DNA of 64,000 bases from Desulfobacterales bacterium (GTDB lineage Bacteria; Desulfobacterota; Desulfobacteria; Desulfobacterales; SURF-7), in contig JBGSLR010000038.1 of assembly GCA_041740615.1 (NCBI GenBank), positions 98,169 to 162,168 on the forward strand, in the 5' to 3' direction. Both the position numbers and the translations under genes were made by a program. This document shows positions 18,730 to 54,611 of this stretch, piece after piece. Under the pieces are notes generated by a model. The model had not been told where the DNA came from, searched no databases, and saw only the letters and a program-made list of their open reading frames with translations. How positions within the stretch are numbered: position 1 is the stretch's first letter; each line of letters opens with the position of its first letter.

Positions 18730-18932
18730 AATGATCCTCCTTTTTGGAAAATGCATGACGATGAGAATGACCGAAGACTGATGGTGTTGGGGGTCAATGT
18801 AAAATGGAACAACAAGGAAATTTCCGGTCAAAAAGGAAGTGAGAAAGGACTACAAACTGGTTTCCTTCCGGATCCGGAATATAGATGGACATTACTATAA
18901 CGCAACTGCGGATCGATATCAATATTTATTGT

Positions 18933-20123: not shown

Positions 20124-20186
20124 TTTTCGCTTATAGAAGTCCCCTCAGAAAGCGGCCAAACCGGCAAAAACGATCCTGTCGGCGGA

Positions 20187-20570
20187 TTAATCGTCGTTTT
20201 CGCCTGCGCCTACCAGGGGGAGTTCTTTATCGACTTTGAAAATCATTAAAAACCGATTTTGGGCGTCATCACCCTTGTATTCGCGCCGGCTGAGGGATTT
20301 GATCCGCTGGCTGTTTTTTTCCTCTCGAATTTTACATAAAAATAGACGTTTACCTTTGAAACCGGCTGCGTCTTCCATGAAAAGATAGACAGCAAAAGGA
20401 TTGGTCTGCAAATTGGAGTGGGTCAACCGATCCCGCATGATGAACGCCAGTGAGCCGTCCTCCAGAATATGGGGACGCGAGTAAATGGCCGCATCCACCC
20501 GGCCGTGATTGTCTGCGGTGGCGAGAACACCCGTTCCTTTGGTCTGTTCGAAATATTCCTTGTAGGACAT
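20187..20570 (-). CDS. pyridoxamine 5'-phosphate oxidase-family (FMN-binding split-barrel) protein
   Basis: 127 aa. The GVLATADNHGRVDAAIYSRP...LAFIM pattern is typical of small PNPOx-like proteins. Confidence 0.6.
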   Translation of the reverse strand: MSYKEYFEQTKGTGVLATADNHGRVDAAIYSRPHILEDGSLAFIMRDRLTHSNLQTNPFAVYLFMEDAAGFKGKRLFLCKIREEKNSQRIKSLSRREYKGDDAQNRFLMIFKVDKELPLVGAGENDD

Positions 20571-20796: not shown

Positions 20797-22107
20797 TTAC
20801 TGCCGAACCGAATCGTTTTCCGGGATGGAACCCGGGCCGTCCTTACGGTTTGCGTCGCGACCGAACGCCAAAGATGCCAGGGCTCGATTGCGCGGTTGGT
20901 AGGTATTGTCGGCCATCTCCTTGCGAACCACTTTTTGAAGGAGCTTAAACATTTTGAGTTCCTGGGACTCGTTCTGATAGAAGGCATCCCATGAATACTG
21001 GAGGAGTTCCTCCAGCCGTGCCGGCGTCAGATGCTTTGGGTGATAGACGACTTTGTCGGCGGAATAATCGTTCCAGTCAAAGGAGAAGATCCGGTTCTGG
21101 CTGTTCAAATCGTCAAAGGCTTTGGTATGGGGGAAAGGCGTCAGGACGGTAAATTCGGCCAGATCCAGTTCGATTTCAAGCAGAAAATCGATAAGCCGTT
21201 TGATATACTCTTCCGTATGGTGGTCAAGACCCAGGAGTACGGTGGCTTCGACGCCAATACCGGCGTCATGATATCTCTGGATACGGGATTTGATGTAGTC
21301 CGACGTATCAAAAACCGCCTGGTAAACGTACCAGGCTCCGGCTTGGGCAGCCAGATCCAGAACTTCCGGGTGGTCATCGATGGGATGACAGCACCACTTT
21401 TTTTTCAGCGGAATCATTTCCCGAAAGAGATCCGTTTCCCATTGTCGATCCTGGGACAGGGAATTGTCCACCATAAAAAGGCGGTTGTTTTGAATGCCGG
21501 CCATCTCCTCGATCACCTTGTCGATGGGCCGCGGCCTGAATTTTTTCCCGCCGAGATAAGCGACCGCGCATGGGTAGCAATGAAAGCGGCAACCGCGTGA
21601 GGCATGGATCAGGTCCACCATTTGAACGCCGCGGTAGTTATACAATTCGCGCCGTAGAATATCCCGACGGGCAGGGCCGACAATCTCAATGGGGGGAGGA
21701 TCCGACAGGTGGTTGTAAATTTTTTGGAGACGTCCGGCCCGGAAATCGGAGAAAACCTGCTCCATGCGTCCCTCGGCCTCGCCCAAAAAGACCGCATCCG
21801 CATGCAGCGTCGTCTCTTCCGCGTGGAGGGTCGTCGCGATTCCACCGCAGATCACCGGGATGCCTTTCCGTCGATAGATGTCGGCGATTTCCCAACCGCG
21901 CTTCACCTGGACGGTCAGCATCATGGAAATTCCGATAAAATCCACCGGGTCGTCAAAATCAATGGACTCCAGATTTTCGTCAACAAAAACAATGTCCACA
22001 TAAGAAGGCAAGGCGGCCGCAAAAACCACGGGGCCGTGTGGAGGCAAATGGAATTCATTCTGCCGCTCAAGGCGGCGCCATTTGGGATAGATCAGTTTGA
22101 ATCTCAT
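20797..22107 (-). CDS. B12-binding-domain radical SAM enzyme (class B rSAM)
   Basis: N-terminal Rossmann/B12-like region (DFIGISMMLT...GIPVICGG), then CxxxCxxC (SRGCRFHCYPC). 436 aa. Confidence 0.85.
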   Translation of the reverse strand: MRFKLIYPKWRRLERQNEFHLPPHGPVVFAAALPSYVDIVFVDENLESIDFDDPVDFIGISMMLTVQVKRGWEIADIYRRKGIPVICGGIATTLHAEETTLHADAVFLGEAEGRMEQVFSDFRAGRLQKIYNHLSDPPPIEIVGPARRDILRRELYNYRGVQMVDLIHASRGCRFHCYPCAVAYLGGKKFRPRPIDKVIEEMAGIQNNRLFMVDNSLSQDRQWETDLFREMIPLKKKWCCHPIDDHPEVLDLAAQAGAWYVYQAVFDTSDYIKSRIQRYHDAGIGVEATVLLGLDHHTEEYIKRLIDFLLEIELDLAEFTVLTPFPHTKAFDDLNSQNRIFSFDWNDYSADKVVYHPKHLTPARLEELLQYSWDAFYQNESQELKMFKLLQKVVRKEMADNTYQPRNRALASLAFGRDANRKDGPGSIPENDSVRQ

Positions 22108-22141
22108 GGAGTCTGTTTACCTGTTTTTTGTGGTTTTGCGC

Positions 22142-22822
22142 TCATTTCCCCAACGGCAGGGCTTCGAGCAGATGCATTGTCAATTCGTATCCAAAGAGAC
22201 CGTGGGCCGTCAGCTTCAGCGTTTTCGGTAAAAGCACCGACTTTTGAAATGAATCGGTCATATCCGTGGCCGTTACCGTGCGTATAATGGTCCTATCATC
22301 GTCATAACGTTTTATTTCCCAGGAGCTGTCCCCATGTATGGTCATGTCCAGTAGGGAGTCGTCGGCCATGTAATAGCGGCAGATCTCTTCACCGTTTTGA
22401 GACCTGCCGAATTCGCACCGGGTTGCCTCGGGTGGAAAGAATATGAGTCGGATGTCATCCATCATCCCATTCGCCAGAGCCGGAGAGTCGAAAGGGGCAA
22501 TGGCGCGGGTGATGACCAGGTTGCCTTCTTCAGCCGAGGCCTCGAAAAGCACAAAGCCTTCAATGGTCATCAGGGCGCAATGGAGACGTTGCGGTTCGCT
22601 GGAGAGGACCGTGGCGCCCATCAACAATGCCTGGTGACCGTCCGGAGCCGTGGCTTCAATGGAGTGGAGCAGTTGCCATTCTCCAGTGGGGAACAGATTC
22701 CGGCATTTCAGGGCCATGGCCTGTTTCGCGGCGGAATTCTCCATGGGGTCTATTCTGGGAACCGAGGAAGCGCAGGCGCAAAGCAACAGACATATGCAAA
22801 GAAGCGTTGGAACGGGTTTCAT
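22142..22822 (-). CDS. putative lipoprotein (occupies the position taken by DUF3261 in aryl-polyene-type clusters)
   Basis: Signal peptide plus lipobox (LLLCACASS). 4-nt overlap with the upstream LolA-like gene. Family assignment is not verifiable by eye. Confidence 0.6.
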   Translation of the reverse strand: MKPVPTLLCICLLLCACASSVPRIDPMENSAAKQAMALKCRNLFPTGEWQLLHSIEATAPDGHQALLMGATVLSSEPQRLHCALMTIEGFVLFEASAEEGNLVITRAIAPFDSPALANGMMDDIRLIFFPPEATRCEFGRSQNGEEICRYYMADDSLLDMTIHGDSSWEIKRYDDDRTIIRTVTATDMTDSFQKSVLLPKTLKLTAHGLFGYELTMHLLEALPLGK

Positions 22823-23436
22823 TGAACATCCCTGAAGATCTTCGTGGGGATTTTTTCATTGGGAATCACGTTTTGAAAAACAAGCTTGGTGTAGGAATCG
22901 CTGTTTTCATAGATGAGGACGGTGTCGATGATGCCGACTCGATCGGAGAGGCACAGTTCGATCTTTTCAATGAACGCGGCAAAGGCCTTTTCTTTCGGTC
23001 TCAGTATGATTTTACGGTCCGGCTCCAGGACGGCATTGAAAGCCGGATTGTCATCAAAACGGCCGTTCAGCCAGCCGCTGATTTCCTGAAGAACGATCTG
23101 CATCGATTGAAGCGGCATGCCGGTATCTTCCACCAGCTCGTTATTTTGTTGAATGAAATGCTTCATGCGATCCTCGTCCACCATCAAGATGCTGCGGATG
23201 GGTTTTTCGTATTCCCACCGAAGGGATCCGGGGGCCTGGTAGTAAAAACGGCCTTTGGAGATCAGCGGATGAGAGAGAATCGCCATGTGTTTTTCCTGAA
23301 TGAATTCGGCCTGGATCGATGTAAGCTGGCCGGCCGATTGTCGGATCGCGTCCCATGTCTGGGCCCAGCCTATGCATAAACCTGCCGACAGCAGCAGCAG
23401 GATGCTGCAGGCTGATGTAGAAGTATTTGTTTTCAT
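22819..23436 (-). CDS. LolA-like outer-membrane lipoprotein carrier family protein
   Basis: 205 aa with a signal peptide. F.Q.K......L.S.G.FYYQ.PGSLRWEY..P pattern characteristic of the LolA fold family. Confidence 0.7.
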   Translation of the reverse strand: MKTNTSTSACSILLLLSAGLCIGWAQTWDAIRQSAGQLTSIQAEFIQEKHMAILSHPLISKGRFYYQAPGSLRWEYEKPIRSILMVDEDRMKHFIQQNNELVEDTGMPLQSMQIVLQEISGWLNGRFDDNPAFNAVLEPDRKIILRPKEKAFAAFIEKIELCLSDRVGIIDTVLIYENSDSYTKLVFQNVIPNEKIPTKIFRDVQ

Positions 23437-23453
23437 TTATATTGTCCGATTGG

Positions 23454-24242
23454 TCAAAACATGCCGCCGTTGACGGAAATCACCTGGCCGGTGATATAGG
23501 ATGCGTCTTCGGAGCAGAGGAAACGAACGGTTCGGGCTACTTCCTCCGGCTTGCCGATCCGCGCCATGGGGATCATGGCCTTGATGTTGTCGATGGGAAC
23601 ATTCTTGGTCATATCGGTTTCGATGAGTCCCGGTGCCACGACATTGATTCGGATCCCCAAACGAGCCACTTCGGCGGCCACGGATCGGCTGGCTCCGATC
23701 AAGCCGGCTTTGGCTGCGGAATAATTGGCTTGGCCGCGGTTGGGTACAAGGGCGGAAATGGAGGCGATGGAGACGACCGAGCCTCGTTTTTGGCGGATCA
23801 TTTTTTCAAGTACCGGTTTGGTCATATTGTAAAAACCGTTCAAGCTGGTCTGGATCACCGCATCCCATTTCGCTCGGGCCATCATGACAAACAATCCGTC
23901 GGCGGTGATTCCGGCATTGTTGACCAGAATATCAATGGTCTTCATTCGTCCGGCGATATCGGTAACCGCCTGTTTGGCGGCATCCATATCACCGACATCG
24001 AATGCCATGGTTTCCCCTTCTCCACCCGCTTCCCGGATCAGCTCCAACGTCTTCTCCGCCCCTTGGGTATCGGATTTATAGGTGATGACCACGTAAGATC
24101 CGTTGCGGGCCAGTTCGATACCGACAGCCCTTCCGATGCCTTTGCTGCCTCCGGTGACAATCGCAACCGGTCTGGTTCTTTCCGATTTGGTATGATTCTG
24201 TTCCAAGGCTTGTAATCCCTTCCATTCCCTTTGGGCTTCCAT
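23454..24242 (-). CDS. fabG: 3-oxoacyl-ACP reductase (SDR, FabG-type ketoreductase)
   Basis: TGGSKGIGRA cofactor motif, NNAG, and catalytic S...YSAAK. Confidence 0.9.
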   Translation of the reverse strand: MEAQREWKGLQALEQNHTKSERTRPVAIVTGGSKGIGRAVGIELARNGSYVVITYKSDTQGAEKTLELIREAGGEGETMAFDVGDMDAAKQAVTDIAGRMKTIDILVNNAGITADGLFVMMARAKWDAVIQTSLNGFYNMTKPVLEKMIRQKRGSVVSIASISALVPNRGQANYSAAKAGLIGASRSVAAEVARLGIRINVVAPGLIETDMTKNVPIDNIKAMIPMARIGKPEEVARTVRFLCSEDASYITGQVISVNGGMF

Positions 24243-24248
24243 CGGTTC

Positions 24249-24710
24249 TCAATCCGGTTGAAACAATTGCAGGGTCGCTTCCGCCGCAACCACGCCTTCG
24301 ATGTCTGCCTTGCCGTGCACCTCCCGGAAGTTGTCAAACTCGAAATGATTTTCGGCCCAGGTAATGACCACTGCATGTAACGGAATTCGGTCCATGAAAA
24401 AGCGCGCTTTCTTGATTCCCACCAGCCAACCTTTTTTTTCCGAATCGATGCCGTTTTTCCGGATTCGGGTCCAACCGTTTGTAATGCCGGCAGTTTGCGC
24501 CAAGAGTTCGACCAGAATTAGTGCGCTTACACTTTTTCCATCAAAAAAGGGCCAAGTGGCGGATACGATCGATCGTGTTTTGGAGCGGCCTTCATCCAAT
24601 TCCAGTATTTCATGGATCAGCTTCATTCTGCCGCGATGGGGCAACAGGTCGTCGATGCTGATATCTCCCCAATTCATATTCCCTCTTCTCCGGTTTTCGG
24701 AAAAAAACAT
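24249..24710 (-). CDS. hot-dog fold 3-hydroxyacyl-ACP dehydratase (ApeI/ApeP-like)
   Basis: LLPHRGRMKLI motif and hot-dog length. The start may be the internal ATG at 24677 (MNWGDI). Confidence 0.7.
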   Translation of the reverse strand: MFFSENRRRGNMNWGDISIDDLLPHRGRMKLIHEILELDEGRSKTRSIVSATWPFFDGKSVSALILVELLAQTAGITNGWTRIRKNGIDSEKKGWLVGIKKARFFMDRIPLHAVVITWAENHFEFDNFREVHGKADIEGVVAAEATLQLFQPD

Positions 24711-24767
24711 TGAAAATAAAACGACAAATCTTTAGTATCAACCGGATATCAGTAAGGCCCTCCGAAA

Positions 24768-24777
24768 CCTTCGAAGG
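24768..24777. promoter_or_regulatory. perfect 10-bp palindrome CCTTCGAAGG in the divergent promoter region (candidate operator)
   Basis: Read directly. Lies in the 132-bp gap between the divergent dehydratase and ACP operons. The extended imperfect inverted repeat is ccctccgaa/ttcgaaggg. Confidence 0.3.
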
Positions 24778-24842
24778 GATGCTACAACAATTTAACCCTG
24801 CTGTAAAGCAACAAGCCGAAACGGTTAGGAGCGGACGTTAGA

Positions 24843-25109
24843 ATGGAAGCGTTACTCAAGGAACTGAAAAATAAGATTATCGAAGTGCTGAACCTGACGG
24901 ATGTCACGCCGGCGGATTTTAAGGCGGAGGAACAGCTGGTGGGTGGGGCTCTCGGGATCGATTCAATCGATGTGCTGGAGATGGTGATGATGATTGAAAA
25001 AGAGTATGGCGTCATCATTGATAATAAAGAGCTCGGTGAAAAGGTGTTCGCGACCTTGGGCACCCTGGCGGCGTATATCTATGAGAATTCTTCCCGGTTG
25101 CACAATTGA
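24843..25109 (+). CDS. acyl carrier protein (ACP 1)
   Basis: 88 aa with phosphopantetheine attachment motif LGIDSIDVLEMV. Confidence 0.9.
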   Translation: MEALLKELKNKIIEVLNLTDVTPADFKAEEQLVGGALGIDSIDVLEMVMMIEKEYGVIIDNKELGEKVFATLGTLAAYIYENSSRLHN

Positions 25110-27277
25110 AACAAATCAGGGCCTATATTCATGGTATGGGAGTGGTGAGTCCCTTTGGCCTTGGCATCGACGCCACCCGGACGGCACTTGTTGAGGGGCG
25201 CCGGTGTCTTCGACCCCTCAGCTTGTTTCCGGTTGCAAAGGGACCTCCTCTGCCGGTGGGCGAAATAACCATTTCGATGGAAAACGAAGCCTTGCCTCGC
25301 ACGCACCAATTGGCGAGAATTGCTGCGGCCCAAGCGATGGCAGGCAGCCCCAAACCGCCGGATGCGATTGTCATGGGAGTGACCACCGGCGGCATGTCGA
25401 CAACGGAAATACACCTGAAAACAGTTGCCCGTAATCCGGATCTTTTTAGCCATCACGGGGTCGGTTCGGTTGCCGAGGATATCGCGGCCATCTACCATTG
25501 CAAGGGACCGGTGATCACGGTGTCAACCGCTTGTTCTTCGGGCGGTGCGGCTCTCAAGATCGCCCTGGAAATGATGCGTGCCCGCAAGGCCGGGCGGATA
25601 CTGGTGGGCGGCGCCGATTCTCTGTGCCGATTGACCTATTATGGATTTCTGTCCCTGCAACTGATCGACCCCAAAGGCGCCAGGCCCTTCGATGAGGGTC
25701 GGCGGGGAATGTCCATAGCCGAAGGGGCCGCTATGCTGCTGCTGGTAGCGGACCAACCCGGGCAGGCGGTCGGTGAAATTCTGGGAGGCGGCCTGTCATG
25801 CGACGCTTACCATCCCACGGCGCCTCATCCGGAGGGTTCCGGCGCGCTTGTAGCTATGCGGGAAGCGATTGCGGATGCCGGAATCGATCCCGGGGATATC
25901 GACTATATCAATCTGCATGGAACCGGAACGATCGATAACGATCGTTCCGAAGCCAAGGCGATTCGAACTCTTTTCGGTCCAGCCCCTCCGTTGTTGTCAT
26001 CCATCAAAGGCGCCTGTGGTCATTCCCTTGCGGCCGCCGGTGCGGTTGAGGCCGTGGTGGCGGCGATCGCCATTGCTGCAGACCTTGTTCCCGCCAGCAC
26101 CGGTTGTGGATCCCCGGATCCTGATTTGGGAATCGTTCCCGTACAGAAGCCGCTGCAAAGGCCCATGGAAACGGTTTTGTCCAACTCCTTCGGTTTTGGT
26201 GGAAACAATGCCTCCGTGGTCATCGGAAGACCGGGAAGAGCGAGCCGTTTTATGGACTCCTCACCCCGGACGCGAACGATGTCAATAATCGGCAGTGCCT
26301 GCATTACGGGCCAGGGCGGAACGGAGATGACCATGGCCGCCCTGGGCCGAGGGACTGCCTGCAATGGCAGGAGCTCACTGGAAACACTGGCTCTCCAGCT
26401 TCCGCCTTCGGAAATACGGCGTTTGAAGCGTCTTCCCCGATTGGCGATGTCCCTGGCCCTCGAGGCGCATAGAGATTCGGATCAATCCCGACGTCCCCTG
26501 TCGGTGTTTTTCGGCACGGGCTGGGGTGCTCTTTCCGAGACCCATGATTTTTTGACGCGACTGAACGAAACCGGAGAGCAATTCCCAAGTCCCACTGATT
26601 TTGTGGGGTCGGTCCATAACGCTCCTGCCGGTCGGATCGCCATGTGGTTTAAGGCCCAAGGCCCCAGCATTACAACGACCGGAGGGAATTATTCCTTTGA
26701 ACAATCCTTGCTGGCCGCCGATTTGTGTGCTTCCGAAGGAAATGATTGTTTTTTGGTCATCGGCGCGGATGAGGCGCATCCGGAGCTTTCTCCCCTGTTT
26801 GATCGGTCCGTAATCCCCGGGCATGTGCTGTCGGACGGCGGTGGCGCACTCCTGATCCGCAGGGCCGAGTTGGCCTCGGCGTTTCGGGTGCAATTGTTGT
26901 TCTATGAAAACGTCCGGGAAAATCCCGAAGTGATCCCAGCGCTGCTGGACGCTTTGGGTGGCAGGAATCATATGCGGGAGCGGTACGGATTCATCCTGGC
27001 GGGGATTCCCGCAGCAGAAAGGACGGTGGGGGAGCGGCAATTGGGCGACCTGCTTTCCCGGTCGGCTTTTCCCAATTCCGTTTTGGACTACCGCAAATGG
27101 ACCGGCGAATTCGCATCGGCATCCGCCGTGGCTGTTGTCATGGCGGTGAAATTTTTAGAAGCGGGCCTGTTCCCGGGAGTTCTGTGCGCGGGTGCGGATG
27201 TGGATCTTCGCCGCAAAGGCGGTTTGGTAATCGGATTGGGACGGTTTGTCACCGCCATGGAGATCATGCCCGGATGA
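25106..27277 (+). CDS. fused beta-ketoacyl synthase + chain-length-factor-like domain (KS-CLF)
   Basis: The N-terminal half has the Cys-His-His triad (TACSSGG, NLHGTGT, GACGHSLAAAG). The C-terminal half (~aa 390-723) is KS-like without the active Cys (RRLKRLPRLAMSLALEA...TTTGGNYSFEQS), as in Ketoacyl-synt_2/CLF proteins. Confidence 0.8.
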   Translation: MKQIRAYIHGMGVVSPFGLGIDATRTALVEGRRCLRPLSLFPVAKGPPLPVGEITISMENEALPRTHQLARIAAAQAMAGSPKPPDAIVMGVTTGGMSTTEIHLKTVARNPDLFSHHGVGSVAEDIAAIYHCKGPVITVSTACSSGGAALKIALEMMRARKAGRILVGGADSLCRLTYYGFLSLQLIDPKGARPFDEGRRGMSIAEGAAMLLLVADQPGQAVGEILGGGLSCDAYHPTAPHPEGSGALVAMREAIADAGIDPGDIDYINLHGTGTIDNDRSEAKAIRTLFGPAPPLLSSIKGACGHSLAAAGAVEAVVAAIAIAADLVPASTGCGSPDPDLGIVPVQKPLQRPMETVLSNSFGFGGNNASVVIGRPGRASRFMDSSPRTRTMSIIGSACITGQGGTEMTMAALGRGTACNGRSSLETLALQLPPSEIRRLKRLPRLAMSLALEAHRDSDQSRRPLSVFFGTGWGALSETHDFLTRLNETGEQFPSPTDFVGSVHNAPAGRIAMWFKAQGPSITTTGGNYSFEQSLLAADLCASEGNDCFLVIGADEAHPELSPLFDRSVIPGHVLSDGGGALLIRRAELASAFRVQLLFYENVRENPEVIPALLDALGGRNHMRERYGFILAGIPAAERTVGERQLGDLLSRSAFPNSVLDYRKWTGEFASASAVAVVMAVKFLEAGLFPGVLCAGADVDLRRKGGLVIGLGRFVTAMEIMPG

Positions 27278-28623
27278 ATGTCCTGCTGCTTTCCGCCAAT
27301 ATGCTGACCGAACCCTATCCGGTTTATCCCATTGGACTGGATTATGTCGCCGCGGCGTTGGCCCCGCGGCATCGGGTTCGGATAGCGGATATGAACGTGA
27401 TCCGGGATTCGTCATCCCTGATTCGAGAGATCCGAAAAGATCCGCCGGAAGTGATCGGCGTCTCCTTACGGAACGTGGACAATACGGACGCGACCGAACC
27501 GAAAACTTTTATGAAGGAGTACCGGCAACTCATTGCCGCCATCCGGAATCATTCCGATGCCATGATCGTCCTGGGCGGCAGCGGGTTCACGATTTTTCCG
27601 GAACAATTCATGGATATCCTGGAGGCCGATTACGGAATTGTCGGCGAAGGAGAGCGATTGGCGTCCTTGTTGGAGGTCATTGAAGGCCATGGGGACACAA
27701 CGCGGATCCCGGGAGTCATCGGTCGGCGGAATCGGCAGCGAACGTTCGGCCCCTTGGAGCGACCTTTTGAAAGGGGTTTCGACAGCCGAGGGGAACATCT
27801 CGGGTTTTACCTGAAAAACGGCGGGATGTTGAATGTCCAAACCAAAAGAGGCTGTCATTTCAACTGCGTTTATTGCACCTATCCGCAAGTGGAAGGACAT
27901 TCCCTGCGGTTGATAGCGCCTGCAGATGTGGCTCGCACAGCGCTTGAACTGCAGTCCGCGGGAGCCAAGTATCTTTTTATTACAGATTCGGCGTTCAATG
28001 TCGATATTGATCACAGTATGGCCGTGGCCCGGGCTTTCAAAGATGCCGGCCTGGCGATTCCCTGGGGTGCGTTTTTCGCGCCCGTCAAGTTGCCGGATGA
28101 TTATTTCCGAATCATGGCCGACGCCGGCTTGACGCATGTGGAGTTCGGTACGGAGTCTCTTTCGGATCCTGTTCTTTCCGCGTATCGCAAACCGTTTCGG
28201 AAAGCGGAAGTATTTCAGGCTCATCAGGCGGCCGTTGCGGCCGGACTATACGTGGCGCATTATTTCCTGCTGGGGGGGCCGGGCGAAGATGCGGACACCA
28301 TTACCGAGACGCTCTCAGATGTTGACAAGCTGAAACGAACTGTTTTATTTTTTTTCTGCGGGATGCGTATTTATCCCGATACGGCGTTGTATCACCTGGC
28401 TGTCCGGGAGGGTCTGCTCGAGTCCGACAACGACATCCTCGCCCCGGTATTTTATCGCGGCAACGCTCTGGAAGGGAGTGAAATTATCGGGCGGGTTCTG
28501 CAGGCTGCCCGAAATCGACCCAATTGGGTGGTCGGCTCAGGGGGGGGGGATACCGCTCGCATTATTGCCAGATTGTATGATCGCGGGTACGCAGGGCCGC
28601 TTTGGGAGCATCTGATTCGATAA
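27274..28623 (+). CDS. B12-binding-domain radical SAM enzyme (class B rSAM)
   Basis: ATG 27274 overlaps the KS-CLF stop (ATGA). N-terminal B12-like domain (VLLLSANM...VIGVSLRN...MIVLGGSG). CxxxCxxC (KRGCHFNCVYC). Confidence 0.85.
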   Translation: MNVLLLSANMLTEPYPVYPIGLDYVAAALAPRHRVRIADMNVIRDSSSLIREIRKDPPEVIGVSLRNVDNTDATEPKTFMKEYRQLIAAIRNHSDAMIVLGGSGFTIFPEQFMDILEADYGIVGEGERLASLLEVIEGHGDTTRIPGVIGRRNRQRTFGPLERPFERGFDSRGEHLGFYLKNGGMLNVQTKRGCHFNCVYCTYPQVEGHSLRLIAPADVARTALELQSAGAKYLFITDSAFNVDIDHSMAVARAFKDAGLAIPWGAFFAPVKLPDDYFRIMADAGLTHVEFGTESLSDPVLSAYRKPFRKAEVFQAHQAAVAAGLYVAHYFLLGGPGEDADTITETLSDVDKLKRTVLFFFCGMRIYPDTALYHLAVREGLLESDNDILAPVFYRGNALEGSEIIGRVLQAARNRPNWVVGSGGGDTARIIARLYDRGYAGPLWEHLIR

Positions 28624-28632
28624 ACTGTAAAT

Positions 28633-28989
28633 ATGTGGCATAAAGTCAATCATATCTCCCGATCGGAGACGACGGAAAGCTTGTCCGAAGTGGAAATCGG
28701 TCCCGATTCCCCATGGTTTTCAGGTCATTTCCCCGGTGATCCCATCGTGCCGGGAGTGGCTCAGCTGGGACTGGTGTTGGAGGCTCTCCAGCAAACCCGT
28801 GAACATCCCATAACCATAACGGAAATAAGTCGTATCCGTTTCCGACGTATTATCCGGCCGAACGAACCGATCCGTATTTTTATCGCGCCGGTCAACGGCC
28901 GGGTTGATACGGTCGCTTTTCGTATCTTGGTCGAAGAGGAGACGGTCTGCAACGGTTTGATGGTGGTGAAGGAAGCGCTTCCCGGATAG
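28633..28989 (+). CDS. FabZ-like hot-dog 3-hydroxyacyl-ACP dehydratase
   Basis: 118 aa with the canonical FabZ active-site motif HFPGDPIVPGV. Confidence 0.8.
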   Translation: MWHKVNHISRSETTESLSEVEIGPDSPWFSGHFPGDPIVPGVAQLGLVLEALQQTREHPITITEISRIRFRRIIRPNEPIRIFIAPVNGRVDTVAFRILVEEETVCNGLMVVKEALPG

Positions 28990-29140
28990 CGGCGGGGAAC
29001 CTGGCAAGCCAGGCAGCGCGCCATTGAATAACGGTTCGTGATGCGTTTTTCTTGCTCTAAATCCATATCGTTCCCCTTTCGGCATGTTCATTGCCGATTG
29101 GGACTTGATATACAGTTGCCGGAAGAAGCCGGCGGCGAAC

Positions 29141-29169
29141 TTGACCTTGCGCAAAAATAAACGTATATA
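29141..29169 (+). promoter_or_regulatory. candidate internal sigma-70 promoter ahead of ACP 2
   Basis: TTGACC (29141-46), 17-nt spacer, TATATA (29164-69). Lies within the 226-bp gap, ~47 nt upstream of ATG 29216. Confidence 0.55.
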
Positions 29170-29215
29170 GATAAATTTTCACAATTGCATAAATGCATAA
29201 AGGAGAATCAAACGG

Positions 29216-29482
29216 ATGTCGACGGCAAGCGATATTGAAAAAATTATGTTGCGGGTTGCGGAGATCATGATTGATGAACTCAAATTAGAGGATGTCACGC
29301 CGCAAACCTTCAATCCGGACATCGATCTGGTGGATGAAGTGGGCATCGACAGTATGGATCTGGCAACTGTGGCCCTTGTTCTTCGAGATGAATACGGGAT
29401 CCGGATCGATGAGGATGATTACCCCAAGCTCACCACCATTCGGTTGATTTCCGCGTATATAAAGAACAAATTATCGGCCTGA
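29216..29482 (+). CDS. acyl carrier protein (ACP 2)
   Basis: 88 aa with VGIDSMDLATV attachment motif. AAGGAG RBS. Confidence 0.9.
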   Translation: MSTASDIEKIMLRVAEIMIDELKLEDVTPQTFNPDIDLVDEVGIDSMDLATVALVLRDEYGIRIDEDDYPKLTTIRLISAYIKNKLSA

Positions 29483-29519
29483 TCAGGGTCGGAACGGATC
29501 CAATAATCGGAGAAAACAA

Positions 29520-30608
29520 GTGCGTGCCGTCAACATTGAACCAATTGGCGTAAGCGGTCATTCGTATAAAAAGGAATGGAAATTTTCCGACATTATCGCA
29601 GATCCGCTTGTGCGGGATCGCTGGGAAAAAGTCCGCAATTATTTTTTTCTGCGGGAGTCCACCTATGATATGACCAACCGCTGCAACATCCGCTGCGATG
29701 GTTGCTATTATTATGAAGGCGAAAAGCAGTTCGCCACGGAAAATGGGGATGTTGAAGCGTGGCGCAGGTTGATGCAGGCGGAAAAGAAGCGCGGTATAAC
29801 CTTCGTAGTGCTGGCCGGGGCCGAGCCGTCTCTGGTTCCGGAACTGTGTGAAATCTGTTATGGGGAAATCCCGCTCGGCGCCATTGCCACCAACGGACTG
29901 AAGCAAATACCGAAGACGGTGAATTATAAAATCCATATTTCGGTCTGGGGTGATGATGAGACCAGTTTGAAAACCCGCAAAGCAAAGGACATGCTGCTCC
30001 GGCAGATCGATAATTATCGGGATGATCCAAGGGCCGTATTCATTTATACCTTCACGAGGGAAAATATTCAGCAGGCCGAACACGTACTGGAAATACTCGA
30101 ACGGAACAATTGCGTGGCAAGCTTCAACATGTTTTCAGCGCCGGTGGGATACACGGGCGGCCTTCGTCACACACCCGAATCCCTTTCGAATACGCGTAGC
30201 ATGATGATCCGCCTGCTGGATCGGTATCCGCGCAATGTATCGTTTTCCTATTACAATGCCGTTGCACATACGCATCCGAACAGTCTGCATGACCTTTACG
30301 GTTGCCTGTACCCGCGCATGAACCCTACTGCCGGTATGGGACTCGGTCGTTCTTTTCGGCAATACCGCACGGATTTAAGCTGGGATAAACGTTTGGCTTG
30401 TTGCGTTCCGGATACGGACTGCGCCGATTGTCGCCATTACGCTGCGGGTAGTGCGGTTGTGACGGCCAAGCTGTATCGTCACGCCGGAAATCCGGAAACG
30501 TTCAGGGCCTGGTTGGATTATGCGGATACGTATTTGAGTGTTTGGGTGGTCGGATATGAAAAAGGAAGGAACCTATGCAATTATGTGATTTCACCACCTG
30601 ATAAATGA
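29520..30608 (+). CDS. radical SAM enzyme with C-terminal Cys cluster (paralog A)
   Basis: GTG start after a GGAGA RBS. CxxxCxxC (NRCNIRCDGCYYY). C-terminal CC-x6-C-x2-C (ACCVPDTDCADCRHY). No B12 domain. Confidence 0.8.
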   Translation: MRAVNIEPIGVSGHSYKKEWKFSDIIADPLVRDRWEKVRNYFFLRESTYDMTNRCNIRCDGCYYYEGEKQFATENGDVEAWRRLMQAEKKRGITFVVLAGAEPSLVPELCEICYGEIPLGAIATNGLKQIPKTVNYKIHISVWGDDETSLKTRKAKDMLLRQIDNYRDDPRAVFIYTFTRENIQQAEHVLEILERNNCVASFNMFSAPVGYTGGLRHTPESLSNTRSMMIRLLDRYPRNVSFSYYNAVAHTHPNSLHDLYGCLYPRMNPTAGMGLGRSFRQYRTDLSWDKRLACCVPDTDCADCRHYAAGSAVVTAKLYRHAGNPETFRAWLDYADTYLSVWVVGYEKGRNLCNYVISPPDK

Positions 30609-30627
30609 TGGATCAAGGAGCCGGTTG

Positions 30628-31626
30628 ATGAAAACGGTCAGTTCACTGTTGGACAAGGAATGGCATGAACGCTATACTCGCATTTCGAAACTGAATATCC
30701 GCAGCTCGATTTATGATGTAACCAATCGTTGTAATCTTCGCTGTAAGGGATGTTTCTTTTTTTCTTCCGGCGAGCATGAGGCCGCAATAGAGGAAAACGA
30801 TATCACAAAATGGGTAGCCTTTATCGAAAAGGAAAAGGGACGGGGGGTGAACCTGGCCATTCTGATCGGAGGAGAGCCGACCCTTTGCCTGGATCGCGTT
30901 GAGGCTTTTTATAAGCGCCTGCCGACATTCTGTGCCACAAACGGTTTGATCAAGGTGCCGCGGGATCGATTCCCCGATATGATGGTCGGAATTTCCGTTT
31001 GGGGTGATGAAAAAGATGAGCAAACCCTTCGAGGGAAGGATACCTTTTCCGTATCCCGCAAGAACTATGCAGGTGATCCCTATACATATTATCTGTATAC
31101 GATCACGCCCAAACAGATCGGAAAAACCGAGCAGGTGATTCGAAAAATAAGGGATGTCGGCCTGAAAGTTCATATGCAGCTCCTGTCCAATGACGAAGGC
31201 GTCAACGGTTTTTCCTGGTCGGTGCAGGAACTTTCGGATATCCGTATGGAAATGGACACGATGCTCGACACCTATCCCGACACGGTCATTTCTTCCAAAT
31301 ACTATCATGAGATTATCACCGGCGGGAAAATGATGGATCGGAATTTCGGATGGCTGGAATGTCCATCCGTGACCGATGCGCTGGATAACCGGGAGCCGCG
31401 CCCCAGGAGGTTGACGAATTTCATTCGCTGGGCCTCTGACCTGAAAACCATGCACCGCTGCTGTACTTCTGAAACCCGTGACTGTGCAACCTGCAAAGAC
31501 GGCGCCGCACACATGAGCTGGGTTATGGTCAACAAGCGCGCGCACATGCGTTCCACACAGGATCTTCAGAATTGGATAGAAGTGTACGAAATGTTTGCTA
31601 AATTGTATCAATTTATTCCCTGGTAA
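30628..31626 (+). CDS. radical SAM enzyme with C-terminal Cys cluster (paralog B)
   Basis: AAGGAG RBS. NRCNLRCKGCFFF. C-terminal CC-x6-C-x2-C (RCCTSETRDCATCKDG). Colinear with paralog A (ATNGL, ISVWGDE). Confidence 0.8.
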   Translation: MKTVSSLLDKEWHERYTRISKLNIRSSIYDVTNRCNLRCKGCFFFSSGEHEAAIEENDITKWVAFIEKEKGRGVNLAILIGGEPTLCLDRVEAFYKRLPTFCATNGLIKVPRDRFPDMMVGISVWGDEKDEQTLRGKDTFSVSRKNYAGDPYTYYLYTITPKQIGKTEQVIRKIRDVGLKVHMQLLSNDEGVNGFSWSVQELSDIRMEMDTMLDTYPDTVISSKYYHEIITGGKMMDRNFGWLECPSVTDALDNREPRPRRLTNFIRWASDLKTMHRCCTSETRDCATCKDGAAHMSWVMVNKRAHMRSTQDLQNWIEVYEMFAKLYQFIPW

Positions 31627-31631
31627 GGGGT

Positions 31632-32882
31632 ATGGGATCAACAACAGCGGTCATTGTCGGATATGACGCGGTTTCCCCTCTGGGAATTGAATTGGAGGAA
31701 CAGTGGGCGCGGGCCGTACGGGGCGAGAGTGGTATCGGGCCGTTGACGCGGTTTACCTTCGGAGAGGATTTCCCGGTCCGAATCGCCGGTCAGGTGCCGG
31801 ATATCGATCACTTGATCTATCCGTTTTTAAGACCCCGGGAACAGGCCTGTTGGCGTTCACCGATTTTTAAATATGCGCTTCTGACGGTTCAGCGTGCCCT
31901 TGAAAAAAGCGGCATAGAGATCACGGCGGACATGGCCCGGCGAGTTGCGGTAACCTACAGTTCCGCCATCGGCGGTATCGATGCCGTATTACATGCCGAT
32001 CGTTTGATGATTTCGGATGGGAAATGGCCCCATCCGTATACCAATCCGAATGCCTGTATCAACATGGTCGGTGGGAAGATATCCATGTTGACCGGTGCCA
32101 CCGGTCCCATCACCGCCACGATTACCGCTTGTGCCACCGGCGTGACGTCCATGATTATCGGCGCCATGCTTCTGGCCGGAGGTCAGGCGGATGTGGCCAT
32201 CTGCGGCGCCGTGGATTTCGCATTGGTGGAACCGATCGTCGCCGGTTTTGCATCCATGAACGGGGCCTATGTCCCAAAAGAAGGGCAACCTTTTGAATCT
32301 CCTGCAAAGGCCAGTCGACCTTTTTCGGCTCACCGAAGAGGTTTTGTCATTTCCGAGGGGGCTGGGGCGATTATTCTCGCCACCAAAGAATTTGCCCGTG
32401 CGAACGGGTTGGCGCATGCGATCGAAATCGCTGGCTGGGGTATGACGTCGGATGCGCACCATTTTGTCGCTCCCCATGTTGAAACCGTTCGAAACTGCAT
32501 GAACGACAGTCTGGTTCATGCGGGAATCCAAGCGCAAGATGTTCAGGCGGTCAATGCCCATGCAACTTCCACACGGGTCGGCGACAAGGTGGAAGTTGAC
32601 GCGTTGCGGGAGGTGTTTTGCGGCCGAATTCCACCGGTGACGGCGAATAAATCCCTTTTTGGACATGCGATGGGCGCTTCCAGCGCCATAGAATCCATCT
32701 TCGCGATCAAGGGGATGTTGACGGACACCCTCCCGCCGACAATCAATTACCGGCCTGATCCGGAACTGGATCTGGATTGTGTGCCGGACCATCGACGGGT
32801 GTTGCGCCAGGAACATGTGCTCAAAAACGCTTTTGGATTTGGCGGTTGTAACTCGTGTATCGTTTTCCGCAGGATTGAGTAA
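31632..32882 (+). CDS. beta-ketoacyl-ACP synthase (FabB/F-like KS)
   Basis: Cys-His-His triad: ITACATG, NAHATSTRVGD, LFGHAMGASSAIE. Confidence 0.88.
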   Translation: MGSTTAVIVGYDAVSPLGIELEEQWARAVRGESGIGPLTRFTFGEDFPVRIAGQVPDIDHLIYPFLRPREQACWRSPIFKYALLTVQRALEKSGIEITADMARRVAVTYSSAIGGIDAVLHADRLMISDGKWPHPYTNPNACINMVGGKISMLTGATGPITATITACATGVTSMIIGAMLLAGGQADVAICGAVDFALVEPIVAGFASMNGAYVPKEGQPFESPAKASRPFSAHRRGFVISEGAGAIILATKEFARANGLAHAIEIAGWGMTSDAHHFVAPHVETVRNCMNDSLVHAGIQAQDVQAVNAHATSTRVGDKVEVDALREVFCGRIPPVTANKSLFGHAMGASSAIESIFAIKGMLTDTLPPTINYRPDPELDLDCVPDHRRVLRQEHVLKNAFGFGGCNSCIVFRRIE

Positions 32883-32895
32883 GGATTAAATTAAA

Positions 32896-34161
32896 ATGAG
32901 ATCGCCGAAGAACAGGCGCGTTTTTATCGTTGGATACGGTGCGGCTACGCCTCTTGGCAGGACATTTGCGAAAACCTGGGAACGGGCGGTCAATGGTGAT
33001 GCCGGATTCCGCAAAATAACCCGTTGTGAGGTCAAAACCAGGAGTAACGTGGTGGGGGAAATCCCGGATTGGGATCCCCTCTCGATGGACTTCATTGATC
33101 GCAAGGAAGCTCACAACTGGGATGCGGATTTCGTTCTGCTGACCATGGCAGTGTGCCGGGAGGCCTTGGTCCATTCCGGACTGGAGATGAACGCAGAGAC
33201 GGCCCCCCGAACAGCCTGTCTGATCGGATCGGCTTTGAATGGCACCGATGCCTTTCGTATCGCCATGGAAAATTATGCCACCAAAGGCCCGTATAAGGTC
33301 AGTCCATACCTGTTGCCGAATCTCTGCGCCAACTTGCCGGCCGGAAAGGCTGGTATGTTGTTGGGTTTCACCGGACCGATTTTCTCACCCCAGGGTGCTT
33401 GTGCCTCGGGTAATCACGCCATCGGTATCGGCGCGCGGATGATCCGGGACGGAGATTGTGATTTTGTGTTGGCGGGGGGAGTCGACACCTGCCTGGTGCC
33501 GGAAATCATTCAGGGGTTCGCCAATATGATGGCCACGATCAAGATCAATCCAGATGATCGGGCCTTTTTGGATCCCACCCAGGCTTCCCGTCCCTTCAGT
33601 ATCGACCGGAAAGGGATCGTACTTTCCGAGGGCGGCGGTGTCGTAGTGCTGGCCGCCGATGATGCCTTGCGATCCTGGGGGCTGACGCCCAGAGCCGAGG
33701 TAATGGGGGTGGGGTGGACGTCGGACGCCTATCATTTTACGCGACCCAACGCGGCGACCATTGTGCGGGCCATTCGCAGCGCCATAGAGGACGCCGAACT
33801 GCAACCCGAAGATATCCAGTACGTCAATGCCCACGGCACTTCGACCATGAAAGGGGATACTACGGAAGTCGAATGCCTGCGGACTGTTTTCGGTGGGCTG
33901 CTTGAACAAATTCCCGTCTCTTCCAATAAAAGCCAGATTGGTCATACGCTGGGGGCGTCCGCCGCCATCGAGGCGGCTCTCGGTATCGAAGCCATGCAGC
34001 AAGGGCTGATTTTACCGACCGTGAACCATATCCCGGATCCGAGTCTGGCCGACATCGATGTGGTCCCCAACGCCGTGCGGCGTCAGCGCTATGAGTTTTT
34101 TCTCTCCAATGCATTTGGATTCGGCGGAACCAATTGTTGCGTCGTTTTTCGGGGGGTATGA
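32896..34161 (+). CDS. beta-ketoacyl-ACP synthase II-like (FabF-like KS)
   Basis: PQGACASGNHAIG, NAHGTSTMKGD, QIGHTLGASAAIE, C-terminal FGFGGTNCCVVF. Confidence 0.88.
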   Translation: MRSPKNRRVFIVGYGAATPLGRTFAKTWERAVNGDAGFRKITRCEVKTRSNVVGEIPDWDPLSMDFIDRKEAHNWDADFVLLTMAVCREALVHSGLEMNAETAPRTACLIGSALNGTDAFRIAMENYATKGPYKVSPYLLPNLCANLPAGKAGMLLGFTGPIFSPQGACASGNHAIGIGARMIRDGDCDFVLAGGVDTCLVPEIIQGFANMMATIKINPDDRAFLDPTQASRPFSIDRKGIVLSEGGGVVVLAADDALRSWGLTPRAEVMGVGWTSDAYHFTRPNAATIVRAIRSAIEDAELQPEDIQYVNAHGTSTMKGDTTEVECLRTVFGGLLEQIPVSSNKSQIGHTLGASAAIEAALGIEAMQQGLILPTVNHIPDPSLADIDVVPNAVRRQRYEFFLSNAFGFGGTNCCVVFRGV

Positions 34162-34162
34162 C

Positions 34163-34642
34163 ATGCGGCCGAAACCGTTTCTCGCAAAAATGATCGATGG
34201 TGATGAGCGCTATGTCAGAAATCAAAACGACGGGCATGTCTGGCATCGGTGCATGCACCGGACGTTGTATGCGGATACGGATCGCTCCCAAGTTGTCTAT
34301 CACGCCAACTATTTGCGTTATTTCGAATACGGTCGGGCCTCTCTGATGCGTGATGCCGCCTATCCGTATCGGGAAATCGAAGAAAACGGATATATCTATC
34401 CCATTATTGAAATCGGGATCACTTATCACAGTCCCCTATATTATGATGACGCCATGTGGATTCACACCCGGCCTTCGGAAATGGAACGAGTGCGGTTGCG
34501 TTTCGACTATATCATTGTGAACGAAAAAACCGGCGAGATCGTCTGTAAAGGATTCACACGGCATTGCGCCACCAACCGAACGGGCATTCCCGTAGAGGTG
34601 GATAAAAAAACGGTTCATTTATGGGAGATCTTTCCAAAATAG
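34163..34642 (+). CDS. 4HBT/YbgC-type acyl thioesterase
   Basis: Start taken at ATG 34163, directly after the KS stop. Motif VYHANYLRYFEYGR typical of the YbgC/4HBT hot-dog family. Confidence 0.75.
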   Translation: MRPKPFLAKMIDGDERYVRNQNDGHVWHRCMHRTLYADTDRSQVVYHANYLRYFEYGRASLMRDAAYPYREIEENGYIYPIIEIGITYHSPLYYDDAMWIHTRPSEMERVRLRFDYIIVNEKTGEIVCKGFTRHCATNRTGIPVEVDKKTVHLWEIFPK

Positions 34643-54457: not shown

Positions 54458-54611
54458 GGCCCTGTATTAAAAGGCGGATCATTCTGATCGGTCGCCGCGT
54501 AACAGACCCTCACGAACCTCGTCAGGTCCGGAAGGAAGCAGCGATAAGAGATGTGGTCTGTGTCGAGGATCGATCCCGGTCATGTTATGATCCGCCTTTT
54601 AATGTAGGGCC
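54458..54611 (+). ncRNA. ffs: signal recognition particle RNA (4.5S/SRP RNA)
   Basis: Invariant domain IV sequence GUCAGGUCCGGAAGGAAGCAGC (54520-54542) on the + strand. Enclosed by a 25-bp terminal helix (ggccctgtattaaaaggcggatcat / atgatccgccttttaatgtagggcc, two G-U pairs). Followed by a T7 run. Confidence 0.85.

Follow-up and report, generated by a model that had tools for sequence, protein, structure and literature searches.

We describe a 15 kb gene cluster (positions 20797-35523, two divergent operons) in a stretch of 64,000 nucleotides from a Desulfobacterales bacterium (assembly GCA_041740615.1, contig JBGSLR010000038.1, positions 98,169 to 162,168), hereafter the window, whose coordinates are used throughout. 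Our main subject is the gene rSAM1, which, judging from its sequence and its neighbours, very probably encodes a cobalamin-dependent class B radical S-adenosylmethionine (SAM) enzyme of the TIGR04072 family in a lipid or polyketide synthase (PKS) context. A preliminary description of this DNA had singled out rSAM1 and a second gene, rSAM2, as radical SAM proteins of this class and had proposed that they act on an acyl chain.

The open reading frames (ORFs) of the cluster were compared with Pfam, NCBIfam and the PDB, and the resulting features are listed below. The fractions are synteny counts over the best 80 loci out of at least 587 GTDB species genomes (one genome per species) that have relatives of rSAM1, with the loci that have enough flanking sequence as denominators. 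ACP stands for acyl carrier protein, and KS-CLF for a ketosynthase (KS) fused to a chain length factor (CLF)-like domain.

20797-22107, minus strand: rSAM2, divergent class-B-like radical SAM protein, with which the conserved part of the divergent arm ends (CRFHCYPC; Pfam below threshold; hhalign)
22142-22822, minus strand: DUF3261-like putative lipoprotein, as in aryl-polyene clusters (Pfam 21.6 bits, just under threshold; syntenic)
22819-23436, minus strand: LolA-like lipid or lipoprotein carrier (Pfam LolA 42.9 bits; 30/52 loci)
23454-24242, minus strand: FabG/ApeQ-like ketoreductase of the short-chain dehydrogenase/reductase type (adh_short 180 bits, KR 69 bits; 39/60 loci)
24249-24710, minus strand: ApeP/FabZ-like single-hotdog dehydratase (ApeP-like 26.8 bits, threshold 27; NCBIfam FabZ-like; PDB 6qsr_B)
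24711-24842: divergent intergenic region between the two operons (ORF map)
24843-25109, plus strand: ACP1, dedicated acyl carrier protein (PP-binding 36 bits; stop overlaps the KS-CLF start as TTGA)
25106-27277, plus strand: KS-CLF fusion, 723 aa (Pfam ketoacyl-synt N and C, and Ketoacyl-synt_2)
27274-28623, plus strand: rSAM1, predicted cobalamin-type class B radical SAM protein (TIGR04072, 387.2 bits; TsrM-like model)
28633-28989, plus strand: ApeI/FabA-like single-hotdog dehydratase (FabA 37 bits; ApeI-like 30.2, threshold 28.5; PDB 3esi, 6qsr_A)
29216-29482, plus strand: ACP2 (PP-binding 40 bits; mean identity across loci 74%)
29520-30608, plus strand: rSAM3, non-B12 radical SAM protein (CNIRCDGC; C-terminal CC-x6-C-x2-C; Radical_SAM 29.8 bits)
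30625-31626, plus strand: rSAM4, non-B12 radical SAM protein, paralogue of rSAM3 (CNLRCKGC; C-terminal CC-x6-C-x2-C; Radical_SAM 30.7 bits)
31632-32882, plus strand: KS_a, FabF-like ketosynthase with Cys-His-His (Pfam; NCBIfam FabF-like, below the equivalog cut-off)
32896-34161, plus strand: KS_b, FabF-like ketosynthase with Cys-His-His (Pfam, NCBIfam)
34058-34642, plus strand: 4HBT-type thioesterase, true start probably 3' of 34161 (4HBT_2 47.7 bits; syntenic)
34621-35523, plus strand: double-hotdog PKS-type dehydratase-like protein, closing the conserved part of the forward operon (weak PKS_DH_N, PS-DH; 36/51 loci)

ACP1, KS-CLF and rSAM1 form a single, tightly packed string in which rSAM1 is the third gene. 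As the preliminary description had read from the letters, rSAM1 starts inside the stop codon of KS-CLF: the latter (723 codons) terminates at the TGA of 27275-27277, and the ATG of rSAM1 lies at 27274, giving the ATGA junction contained in GAGATCATGCCCGGATGAATGTCC (27260-27285). A longer in-frame ORF would start at 27097. We take 27274 as the true start because the close homologues (n=28) are 447-463 aa long and align from residue 1 (MKVLLISAN...), and because TIGR04072 covers residues 2-449. Other four-base overlaps occur in the same cluster (between ACP1 and KS-CLF, where it reads TTGA, and between the LolA and DUF3261 genes) and they are common in operons generally, so that the overlap of rSAM1 with KS-CLF indicates by itself only a co-operonic arrangement. 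The preliminary description also placed one B12-type radical SAM gene at each end of the KS/ACP core. This fits rSAM2, which closes the conserved part of the divergent arm, but not rSAM1, which sits in the middle of the forward operon and is followed there by a dehydratase, ACP2, two radical SAM genes, two ketosynthases, the thioesterase and a further dehydratase. Promoter-like hexamers are present on both strands of the intergenic region 24711-24842; in the promoter and terminator scans, the real sequence did not exceed shuffled sequence in the number of sites. An Rfam scan revealed no cobalamin riboswitch or other regulatory RNA near the cluster, and there is no tRNA gene in the window.

The first half of the KS-CLF fusion is an active-type ketosynthase with Cys-His-His and the motifs TACSSG, HGTGT and GHSLAAAG, and the second half is an inactive, CLF-like domain (Ketoacyl-synt_2) whose best solved match is the aryl-polyene CLF 6qsp_B. 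The PDB entries 9s5h/9s5i are the best match of the KS half and a weak match of the CLF half; they may represent the anammox FabF heterodimer of a 2026 preprint, and we base no conclusion on them. The C-terminal cysteines of rSAM3 and rSAM4 suggest that these two proteins bind an auxiliary cluster.

Several gene kinds were searched for without success. No cluster ORF scanned with Pfam matched an enoyl reductase or a class I methyltransferase family, nor did Pfam identify an ammonia-lyase or an AMP-ligase in the cluster, and tblastn detected neither of these last two anywhere in the window or at the 80 close loci. We found no acyltransferase, glycosyltransferase or MMPL exporter in the window. 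For a phytoene dehydrogenase (PDH)-like gene, there was no amine-oxidase family match among the window ORFs examined, and tblastn with a PDH-like query was without match.

The closest known parallel in gene content comes from the aryl polyene and flexirubin clusters (ApeO:ApeC, ApeQ, ApeI:ApeP). Like them, the window has a KS with a CLF, one ketoreductase, ApeI/ApeP-like hotdog proteins, a 4HBT thioesterase, a LolA-like and a DUF3261-like protein, two ACPs, and no enoyl reductase. Unlike them, it fuses KS and CLF, adds four radical SAM genes, and has no aryl-starter genes, glycosyltransferase, acyltransferase or MMPL protein. By its predicted enzymes, the cluster is an aryl-polyene-type type II PKS without aryl-starter genes and with four radical SAM genes. 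It is of the type labelled 'ladderane' by genome-mining tools, and metagenomic surveys have reported antiSMASH 'ladderane' clusters in Desulfobacterota and other phyla.

The predicted cobalamin enzymes rSAM1 and rSAM2

rSAM1 matches the Pfam families B12-binding (PF02310, 57.8 bits, residues 12-128) and Radical_SAM (PF04055, 63.9 bits, residues 191-349), both above threshold. It also matches the NCBIfam model TIGR04072 (rSAM_ladder_B12, "lipid biosynthesis B12-binding/radical SAM protein") end to end (residues 2-449 on model positions 1-443), with an E-value of 8.4e-116 and a score of 387.2 bits, above the curated cut-off of 360. On these scores rSAM1 is a predicted member that is peripheral yet valid. 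Relatives only 29-40% identical to it pass the same cut-off, some of them with far higher scores (up to 518 bits).

The preliminary description looked to relatives that modify lipid tails, and this part did not hold. The closest characterised families are aromatic C-methylases, namely BzaD (TIGR04385, 166 bits) and the TsrM type (TIGR04428, 129 bits, cut-off 500), followed by PhpK (82), HpnJ (82) and HpnR (61), each match being well under its own cut-off. We rejected an assignment of rSAM1 to the hopanoid-type lipid enzymes HpnR and HpnJ (cut-offs 650 and 578, respectively) and to the tetraether-type Tes enzymes (less than 30 bits, cut-off 450). BzaD, a class B radical SAM protein of B12 lower-ligand synthesis, is the second-best NCBIfam match (residues 16-401), also for the distant members of the family. 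However, rSAM1 scores far under the BzaD cut-off of 450, and there are no benzimidazole biosynthesis genes nearby.

The AlphaFold2 model of rSAM1 has a predicted local distance difference test score (pLDDT) of 81 and a predicted template modelling score (pTM) of 0.84. Its best structural match by Foldseek is the tryptophan 2-C-methyltransferase TsrM (6WTE/6WTF, TM 0.81, E 1.5e-23), which is also its best solved match in sequence (107 bits, about 22% identity). Further structural matches are MgmA, AprD4 (which rSAM1 also matches in sequence, at 62 bits), CysS, OxsB and TokK. CysS and TokK/ThnK, class B methylases that act on pantetheine-tethered substrates, have the same overall fold (TM about 0.65), but they are only 17-18% identical to rSAM1, differ in the residue beneath the cobalt (Trp in TokK), and belong to natural product rather than lipid contexts. 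rSAM1 and TsrM have in common G-x-S/T-x-R with an Arg beneath the cobalt, GG, GE and CxxxCxxC. In contrast to TsrM, rSAM1 is about 120 residues shorter, has a C-terminal motif particular to its family, RG[HYF]xGP[LM]WE, lacks Glu273, and is found in a lipid/PKS and not a thiopeptide context.

These motifs can be followed residue by residue. In a phmmer alignment, G62-x-S64-x-R66 of rSAM1 falls on G65-x-T67-x-R69 of TsrM, the downstream cobalamin motif, whose Arg lies in the loop after strand 3 and blocks the lower face of cobalamin (PMC9204698). The GG and GE motifs are G101-G102 and G124-E125-G126-E127, and the cysteines of the Fe-S cluster are C194, C198 and C201. None of these positions varies among 28 family members that share 58-78% identity with the window protein. 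In TsrM, Glu273 replaces SAM as the ligand of the unique iron, which renders the enzyme non-radical (PMC9204698). The segment D271-S272-E273 of TsrM corresponds to D238-S239-A240 of rSAM1, and the last position is A, V, T, L or I across the family and Glu in none, so that canonical SAM binding at the Fe-S site of rSAM1 should be possible. We thus predict a TsrM-like cobalamin site with an Arg beneath the cobalt, together with an Fe-S site that is free for SAM.

rSAM2 (436 aa, with C173, C177 and C180 in CRFHCYPC) is more difficult to classify. It falls just under the Pfam thresholds (30.4 vs 32.1 for B12-binding, 25.0 vs 29.5 for Radical_SAM), no NCBIfam model reaches its cut-off, and its AlphaFold2 model was too poor for a fold search (pLDDT 58.6), so we compared it by profiles instead. 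The only solved structure found with the profile of its family is AprD4 (28 bits), whose PDB entry is titled as a radical SAM 1,2-diol dehydratase. AprD4 is not known to use cobalamin. rSAM2 could likewise have kept its Rossmann domain as a structural remnant and carry out a cobalamin-independent radical reaction (dehydration or reduction), in which case the cluster would have one true B12 enzyme only. The low scores, the match to AprD4 and the poor model agree with this possibility, but we think it rather doubtful. A profile-profile comparison (hhalign) between the rSAM2 and rSAM1 families gives 94% probability over 336 columns, with the three cobalamin motifs, which also align with those of TsrM, and the Cys motif in register. 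Across 27 homologues there is no variation at G59-x-S61-x-M63, G88-G89, G109-E110 and the three cysteines. A Met takes the place of the Arg of rSAM1, and Trp76 of TokK provides a precedent for a hydrophobic residue beneath the cobalt (PMC9204698). Most homologues of rSAM2 have precomputed B12-binding matches and are named B12-binding or cobalamin-dependent by NCBI. We therefore accept rSAM2 as a predicted, divergent class-B-like radical SAM protein. The earlier reading of both proteins as having an N-terminal B12 region followed by CxxxCxxC is in line with these alignments, in which all three cobalamin motifs are invariant on both sides.

Gene neighbourhoods of close and distant relatives

Homologues of rSAM1 are numerous. 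Of the candidates scored in a word-indexed search, 2,669 reached E<=1e-10, and 'lipid biosynthesis B12-binding/radical SAM protein' was a frequent name among these; of the 50% clusters, searched exhaustively, 687 reached E<=1e-30. The best 80 loci come from Desulfobacterales, Syntrophales/Smithella, strain NaphS2, Desulfatiglandales and Spirochaetota/Leptospirales. The closest one (L001) belongs to a Thermodesulfobacteriota metagenome-assembled genome (MAG), has an rSAM1 with 78% identity, and keeps the same gene order from a FadL-type gene on one side of the cluster to a histone-deacetylase-like gene on the other. The order rSAM2-DUF3261-LolA-ketoreductase-dehydratase on the divergent arm and ACP1-KS-CLF-rSAM1-dehydratase-ACP2-rSAM3-rSAM4-KS-KS-thioesterase-dehydratase on the forward arm is found again in Desulfobacterales, Syntrophales, NaphS2 and Spirochaetota, and in most of the best 80 loci.

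The partners of rSAM1 differ in their constancy. KS-CLF is immediately upstream in 39 of 66 loci, with an NTGA overlap in 33 of 80, while an ACP occurs within 2.8 kb upstream in 59 of 66 (directly in 21, via KS-CLF in 38). Hence, the coupling with KS-CLF is frequent but dispensable, and the nearly constant partner is the dedicated ACP. The ApeI-like dehydratase follows rSAM1 in 57 of 76 loci, rSAM3 is present in 50 of 65 and rSAM4 in 46 of 62, and rSAM2 is found in the divergent arm in 31 of 47. Mean identity to the window proteins is 58.3% for rSAM1 and 74.5% for rSAM2 (36 close loci); no gene of the cluster is more conserved than rSAM4 (80.5%).

Four more distant loci (L081-L084) were obtained by a homology search seeded with P0372, the best scorer against TIGR04072. 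Three of them have, in this order, KS, ACP, a PlsC-type acyltransferase, AMP-ligase, aromatic ammonia-lyase, ApeP/ApeI dehydratases, thioesterase, a KS-CLF fusion, a 420-aa B12-domain protein, the TIGR04072 protein, a third class B radical SAM protein, GT2/DUF2062 and an LpxL-type acyltransferase, a content by which they are classified as full aryl-polyene-type clusters. The fourth has the same kinds of genes in a different order. At least one of the four loci, L084, has FCB-like (type IX secretion system) genes in its neighbourhood. The 420-aa protein is the orthologue of rSAM2, placed as follows.

L081, 7742-8950: rSAM2 orthologue
L082, 7752-8960: rSAM2 orthologue
L083, 14821-16041: rSAM2 orthologue
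L084, 8745-9962: rSAM2 orthologue

In three of the four it stands directly between KS-CLF and the TIGR04072 gene. Its identity to rSAM2 is 57-59%, whereas the rSAM1 orthologues of the same loci are only 30-34% identical to rSAM1. The two B12-type genes thus stay together even in very distant clusters, and rSAM2 is the one under much stronger constraint.

A further member occurs in Flammeovirga aprica JL-4, a cultured aerobic Bacteroidota (GCA_012844305.1, JABANE010000002.1; L085, 10001-11377). Its start overlaps the end of an LpxL-type acyltransferase gene, and its surroundings are a flexirubin/aryl-polyene-type cluster with halogenase, ammonia-lyase, ketoreductase, several KSs and ACPs, CLF, LolA, GT2/DUF2062 and an MMPL-acyltransferase-methyltransferase protein. 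Strain NaphS2 (L069) and Desulfococcaceae HSG9 (L016) are further cultured carriers. More generally, the distant members (30-36% identity) adjoin KS-CLF, an ACP or an LpxL-type acyltransferase in aryl-polyene/flexirubin-type clusters. Metagenomic proteins predicted to carry a TIGR04072-like domain fused with an LpxL-type acyltransferase (P0246), an rSAM/SPASM domain (P0254) or a hotdog domain (P0273) may include gene-calling artefacts, yet they agree with a lipid role. From Desulfobacterota to a cultured Bacteroidota, the orthologues of rSAM1 and rSAM2 are thus found almost exclusively in lipid clusters resembling type II PKS or fatty acid synthase (FAS) systems, the context on which the preliminary description had wanted its proposal checked.

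No anammox genus appears among the names recovered from 50%-cluster representatives, name look-ups and the P0372-seeded search, which did return SAR324, Nitrospinota, KSB1, Brevinematales, Calditrichaceae, Sumerlaeota and Flammeovirga. The link between TIGR04072 and anammox bacteria therefore rests on the name of the model and on the literature.

Two other gene kinds were seen at some of these loci. A further distant class B radical SAM protein, 21-27% identical to rSAM1 or rSAM2 and with no counterpart in the window, occurs in L002, L008, L011, L025, L027, L029, L023, L024 and L040, and those of the last three are 45-47% identical to the third class B protein of the distant aryl-polyene-type loci. 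PDH-like flavoprotein genes (Amino_oxidase/NAD_binding_8, about 484 aa), the same kind of gene as in the anammox Cluster I discussed below, lie beside some TIGR04072 clusters.

L083, 752-2206: PDH-like gene
L084, 1-287: PDH-like gene
L056, 8529-9986: PDH-like gene
L057, 8474-9919: PDH-like gene
L075, 11415-12854: PDH-like gene

Possible substrate and reaction of rSAM1

Considering that rSAM1 is encoded between the KS-CLF machinery and the next dehydratase and close to a dedicated ACP, its substrate is probably the ACP-bound chain. The preliminary description had reached the acyl chain through the coupling with KS-CLF; the wider context supports a carrier-bound chain, but the coupling itself varies among the loci far more than the ACP does. 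The lack of an enoyl reductase in an aryl-polyene-like cluster implies that the substrate is unsaturated and not a saturated lipid tail, and the lack of aryl-starter genes in the 80 closest loci suggests that what they share is chain machinery and not an aromatic head group. As to the reaction, the C-methyl branching that the preliminary description had given as an example is plausible, and we tentatively favour methyl transfer, by analogy: the nearest characterised families, TsrM and BzaD, are C-methylases, the TsrM-type Arg is invariant, and CysS and TokK act on pantetheine-bound substrates. TsrM and BzaD both act on sp2 carbons. The open unique-iron site would also allow radical initiation.

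Taken together, that rSAM1 makes a carbon-carbon bond on an ACP-bound unsaturated chain, in the simplest case by methyl transfer, is in our judgement an evenly balanced proposition. In such a scheme, KS-CLF, the FabG-like ketoreductase and the ApeI/ApeP-like dehydratases would build an enoyl or polyenoyl chain on ACP1, and since there is no enoyl reductase they should leave it as a 2-enoyl or conjugated polyenoyl chain. rSAM1 would bind SAM at its open unique iron, and its cobalamin would form the new bond on the carrier-bound chain, most simply by methylating an sp2 or allylic position. rSAM2, as the regular partner of rSAM1, would probably act on the same intermediate, and the LolA-like protein would route the finished lipid to the outer membrane.

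Several points weigh against this scheme. Not all class B radical SAM enzymes are methylases: OxsB and BchE catalyse other reactions, and so does AprD4, which has a B12-like domain. TsrM, in which the same Arg lies beneath the cobalt, is non-radical and has an aromatic nucleophile as substrate, and the mechanism of rSAM1 could accordingly be polar rather than radical. The 21 loci in which the ACP is directly upstream, with no KS-CLF, indicate that coupling to the elongating enzyme is not a conserved requirement. TIGR04072 is without any member of demonstrated reaction, and a literature search gave no mention of its accession. In the anammox literature, the role of the corresponding cluster is described as unproven, and its radical SAM protein is reported to have resisted heterologous production (Dietl et al. 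2023; 2026 preprint).

A serious alternative, which we nonetheless consider unlikely, is that rSAM1, alone or with rSAM2-4, performs a radical C-C cyclisation or rearrangement of the unsaturated ACP-bound chain, giving ladderane-like or other rings. The name of the family model points in this direction. Four radical SAM proteins without an enoyl reductase make a reactive polyene a plausible substrate, the unique-iron site is open for generation of a 5'-deoxyadenosyl radical, and some relatives have PDH-like flavoproteins nearby. However, TIGR04072 also occurs in Bacteroidota clusters of the flexirubin/aryl-polyene type, whose known products are linear polyenes. Moreover, the nearest characterised enzymes are methylases, and neither ORF scans nor tblastn found a PDH-like gene in the window.

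The comparison with anammox bacteria bears on the same question. Their Cluster I consists of amxACP, a cobalamin radical SAM protein, amxFabZ, an active FabF that pairs with an inactive one as a KS/CLF-like heterodimer, and a phytoene-dehydrogenase-like enzyme, and it has been called exclusive to ladderane producers (Dietl et al. 2023; 2026 preprint). Ring formation by the radical SAM protein is the leading proposal, and a 2026 review sets out three speculative radical SAM mechanisms for it. With the putative ladderane clusters of anammox bacteria (Cluster I, KustE3603-3608; Kuste2803 in Rattray et al. 2009) the window shares a dedicated ACP, the two-domain architecture of the B12-type radical SAM protein, a KS with a CLF-like partner and a hotdog dehydratase. 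In contrast, KS and CLF are fused in the window, a second B12-type and two non-B12 radical SAM proteins are added, the dehydratase next to rSAM1 matches ApeI/3esi best and not FabZ, and there is no PDH-like gene. The full gene set of Cluster I is thus not present, and the host is a Thermodesulfobacteriota MAG and not an anammox bacterium. Ladderanes have been reported from anammox bacteria only. FAS-like clusters that include radical SAM genes were described from Kuenenia by Rattray et al. (2009), with synteny in Desulfotalea, Geobacter and Pelobacter, and Desulfotalea psychrophila, which has related clusters, showed no ladderanes.

Methylation of an aromatic head group, that is, of the aryl starter of an aryl-polyene-type lipid, in the way that TsrM methylates indole C2 or BzaD benzimidazole, would suit the closest characterised families and the invariant Arg, and distant TIGR04072 members do adjoin an aromatic ammonia-lyase and an AMP-ligase. 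Yet these two genes are found in 0 of the 80 closest loci and are lacking in the cluster of the window, the Flammeovirga cluster already has a class I methyltransferase domain, and what all contexts have in common is ACP, KS/CLF, hotdog dehydratase and thioesterase, not an aryl starter. This makes aryl methylation an improbable role for rSAM1. A literature search linking aryl polyenes with cobalamin radical SAM proteins found nothing. The polyunsaturated hydrocarbons of Desulfotalea were also considered as a product of such clusters and rejected, since they are attributed to the Pfa/Ole pathway.

Finally, it is highly improbable that the overlap with KS-CLF reflects operon compaction only and that rSAM1 acts on a cofactor or peptide unrelated to the cluster product: such overlaps are indeed common, also at other junctions of this cluster, and 21 of 66 loci do without KS-CLF, but orthologues from several phyla are embedded among ACP, KS, dehydratase and thioesterase genes, some are predicted as fusions to lipid acyltransferase or hotdog domains, and no genes for an alternative substrate lie nearby.

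The rest of the window and the meaning for the family

Outside the cluster, a FadL-type outer-membrane transporter, a metallophosphoesterase and a small PNPOx-like ORF (17317-20570, minus strand) lie downstream of rSAM2. Conservation of these three is confined to the closest relative, L001, and hence they are probably not part of the cluster. A histone-deacetylase-like ORF (35480-36256), also conserved only in L001, overlaps the end of the last cluster gene. A Ser/Thr protein kinase fused to a cyclic-nucleotide-binding domain is encoded at 15942-17237. NrdD and its radical SAM activase NrdG (37346-40254) are consistent with an anaerobic host, and the bacterial small signal recognition particle RNA (54486-54582, RF00169, 57.8 bits) is the sole Rfam match in the window. 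The remaining genes are housekeeping ones (PNPase, FtsH, FolP, TilS, DnaK, TatC, NrdDG).

As far as its sequence can tell, rSAM1 is an ordinary addition to a curated, widespread and biochemically uncharacterised family in a recognised type of cluster. The window itself adds nothing unique, and the interest lies in the comparative pattern around rSAM1: in many phyla, TIGR04072 regularly belongs to aryl-polyene-like clusters that lack an enoyl reductase, usually paired with a far more conserved B12-type radical SAM protein that has no curated family. One may go further and suppose that this pair is a conserved two-enzyme module of Desulfobacterota, Spirochaetota and the distant genomes, which does radical C-C chemistry (cyclisation or iterative alkylation) on the conjugated polyenoyl-ACP of an aryl-polyene-like type II PKS, with the anammox Cluster I as a specialised offshoot. 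We regard this as a long shot, and we found no description of such a module in the searchable literature. If it were true, anaerobes other than anammox bacteria would produce outer-membrane lipids derived from polyenes, cyclised or heavily branched, that have so far escaped detection, and cultured Flammeovirga aprica and strain NaphS2 would offer the first experimental handle on a ladderane-type radical SAM protein.

The reaction of TIGR04072 has been a long-standing puzzle, as anammox bacteria are genetically intractable and the enzyme resists heterologous expression. The existence of cultured carriers, with Flammeovirga aprica JL-4 as a possible model, suggests that ladderane-type radical SAM proteins may be approachable outside anammox bacteria.

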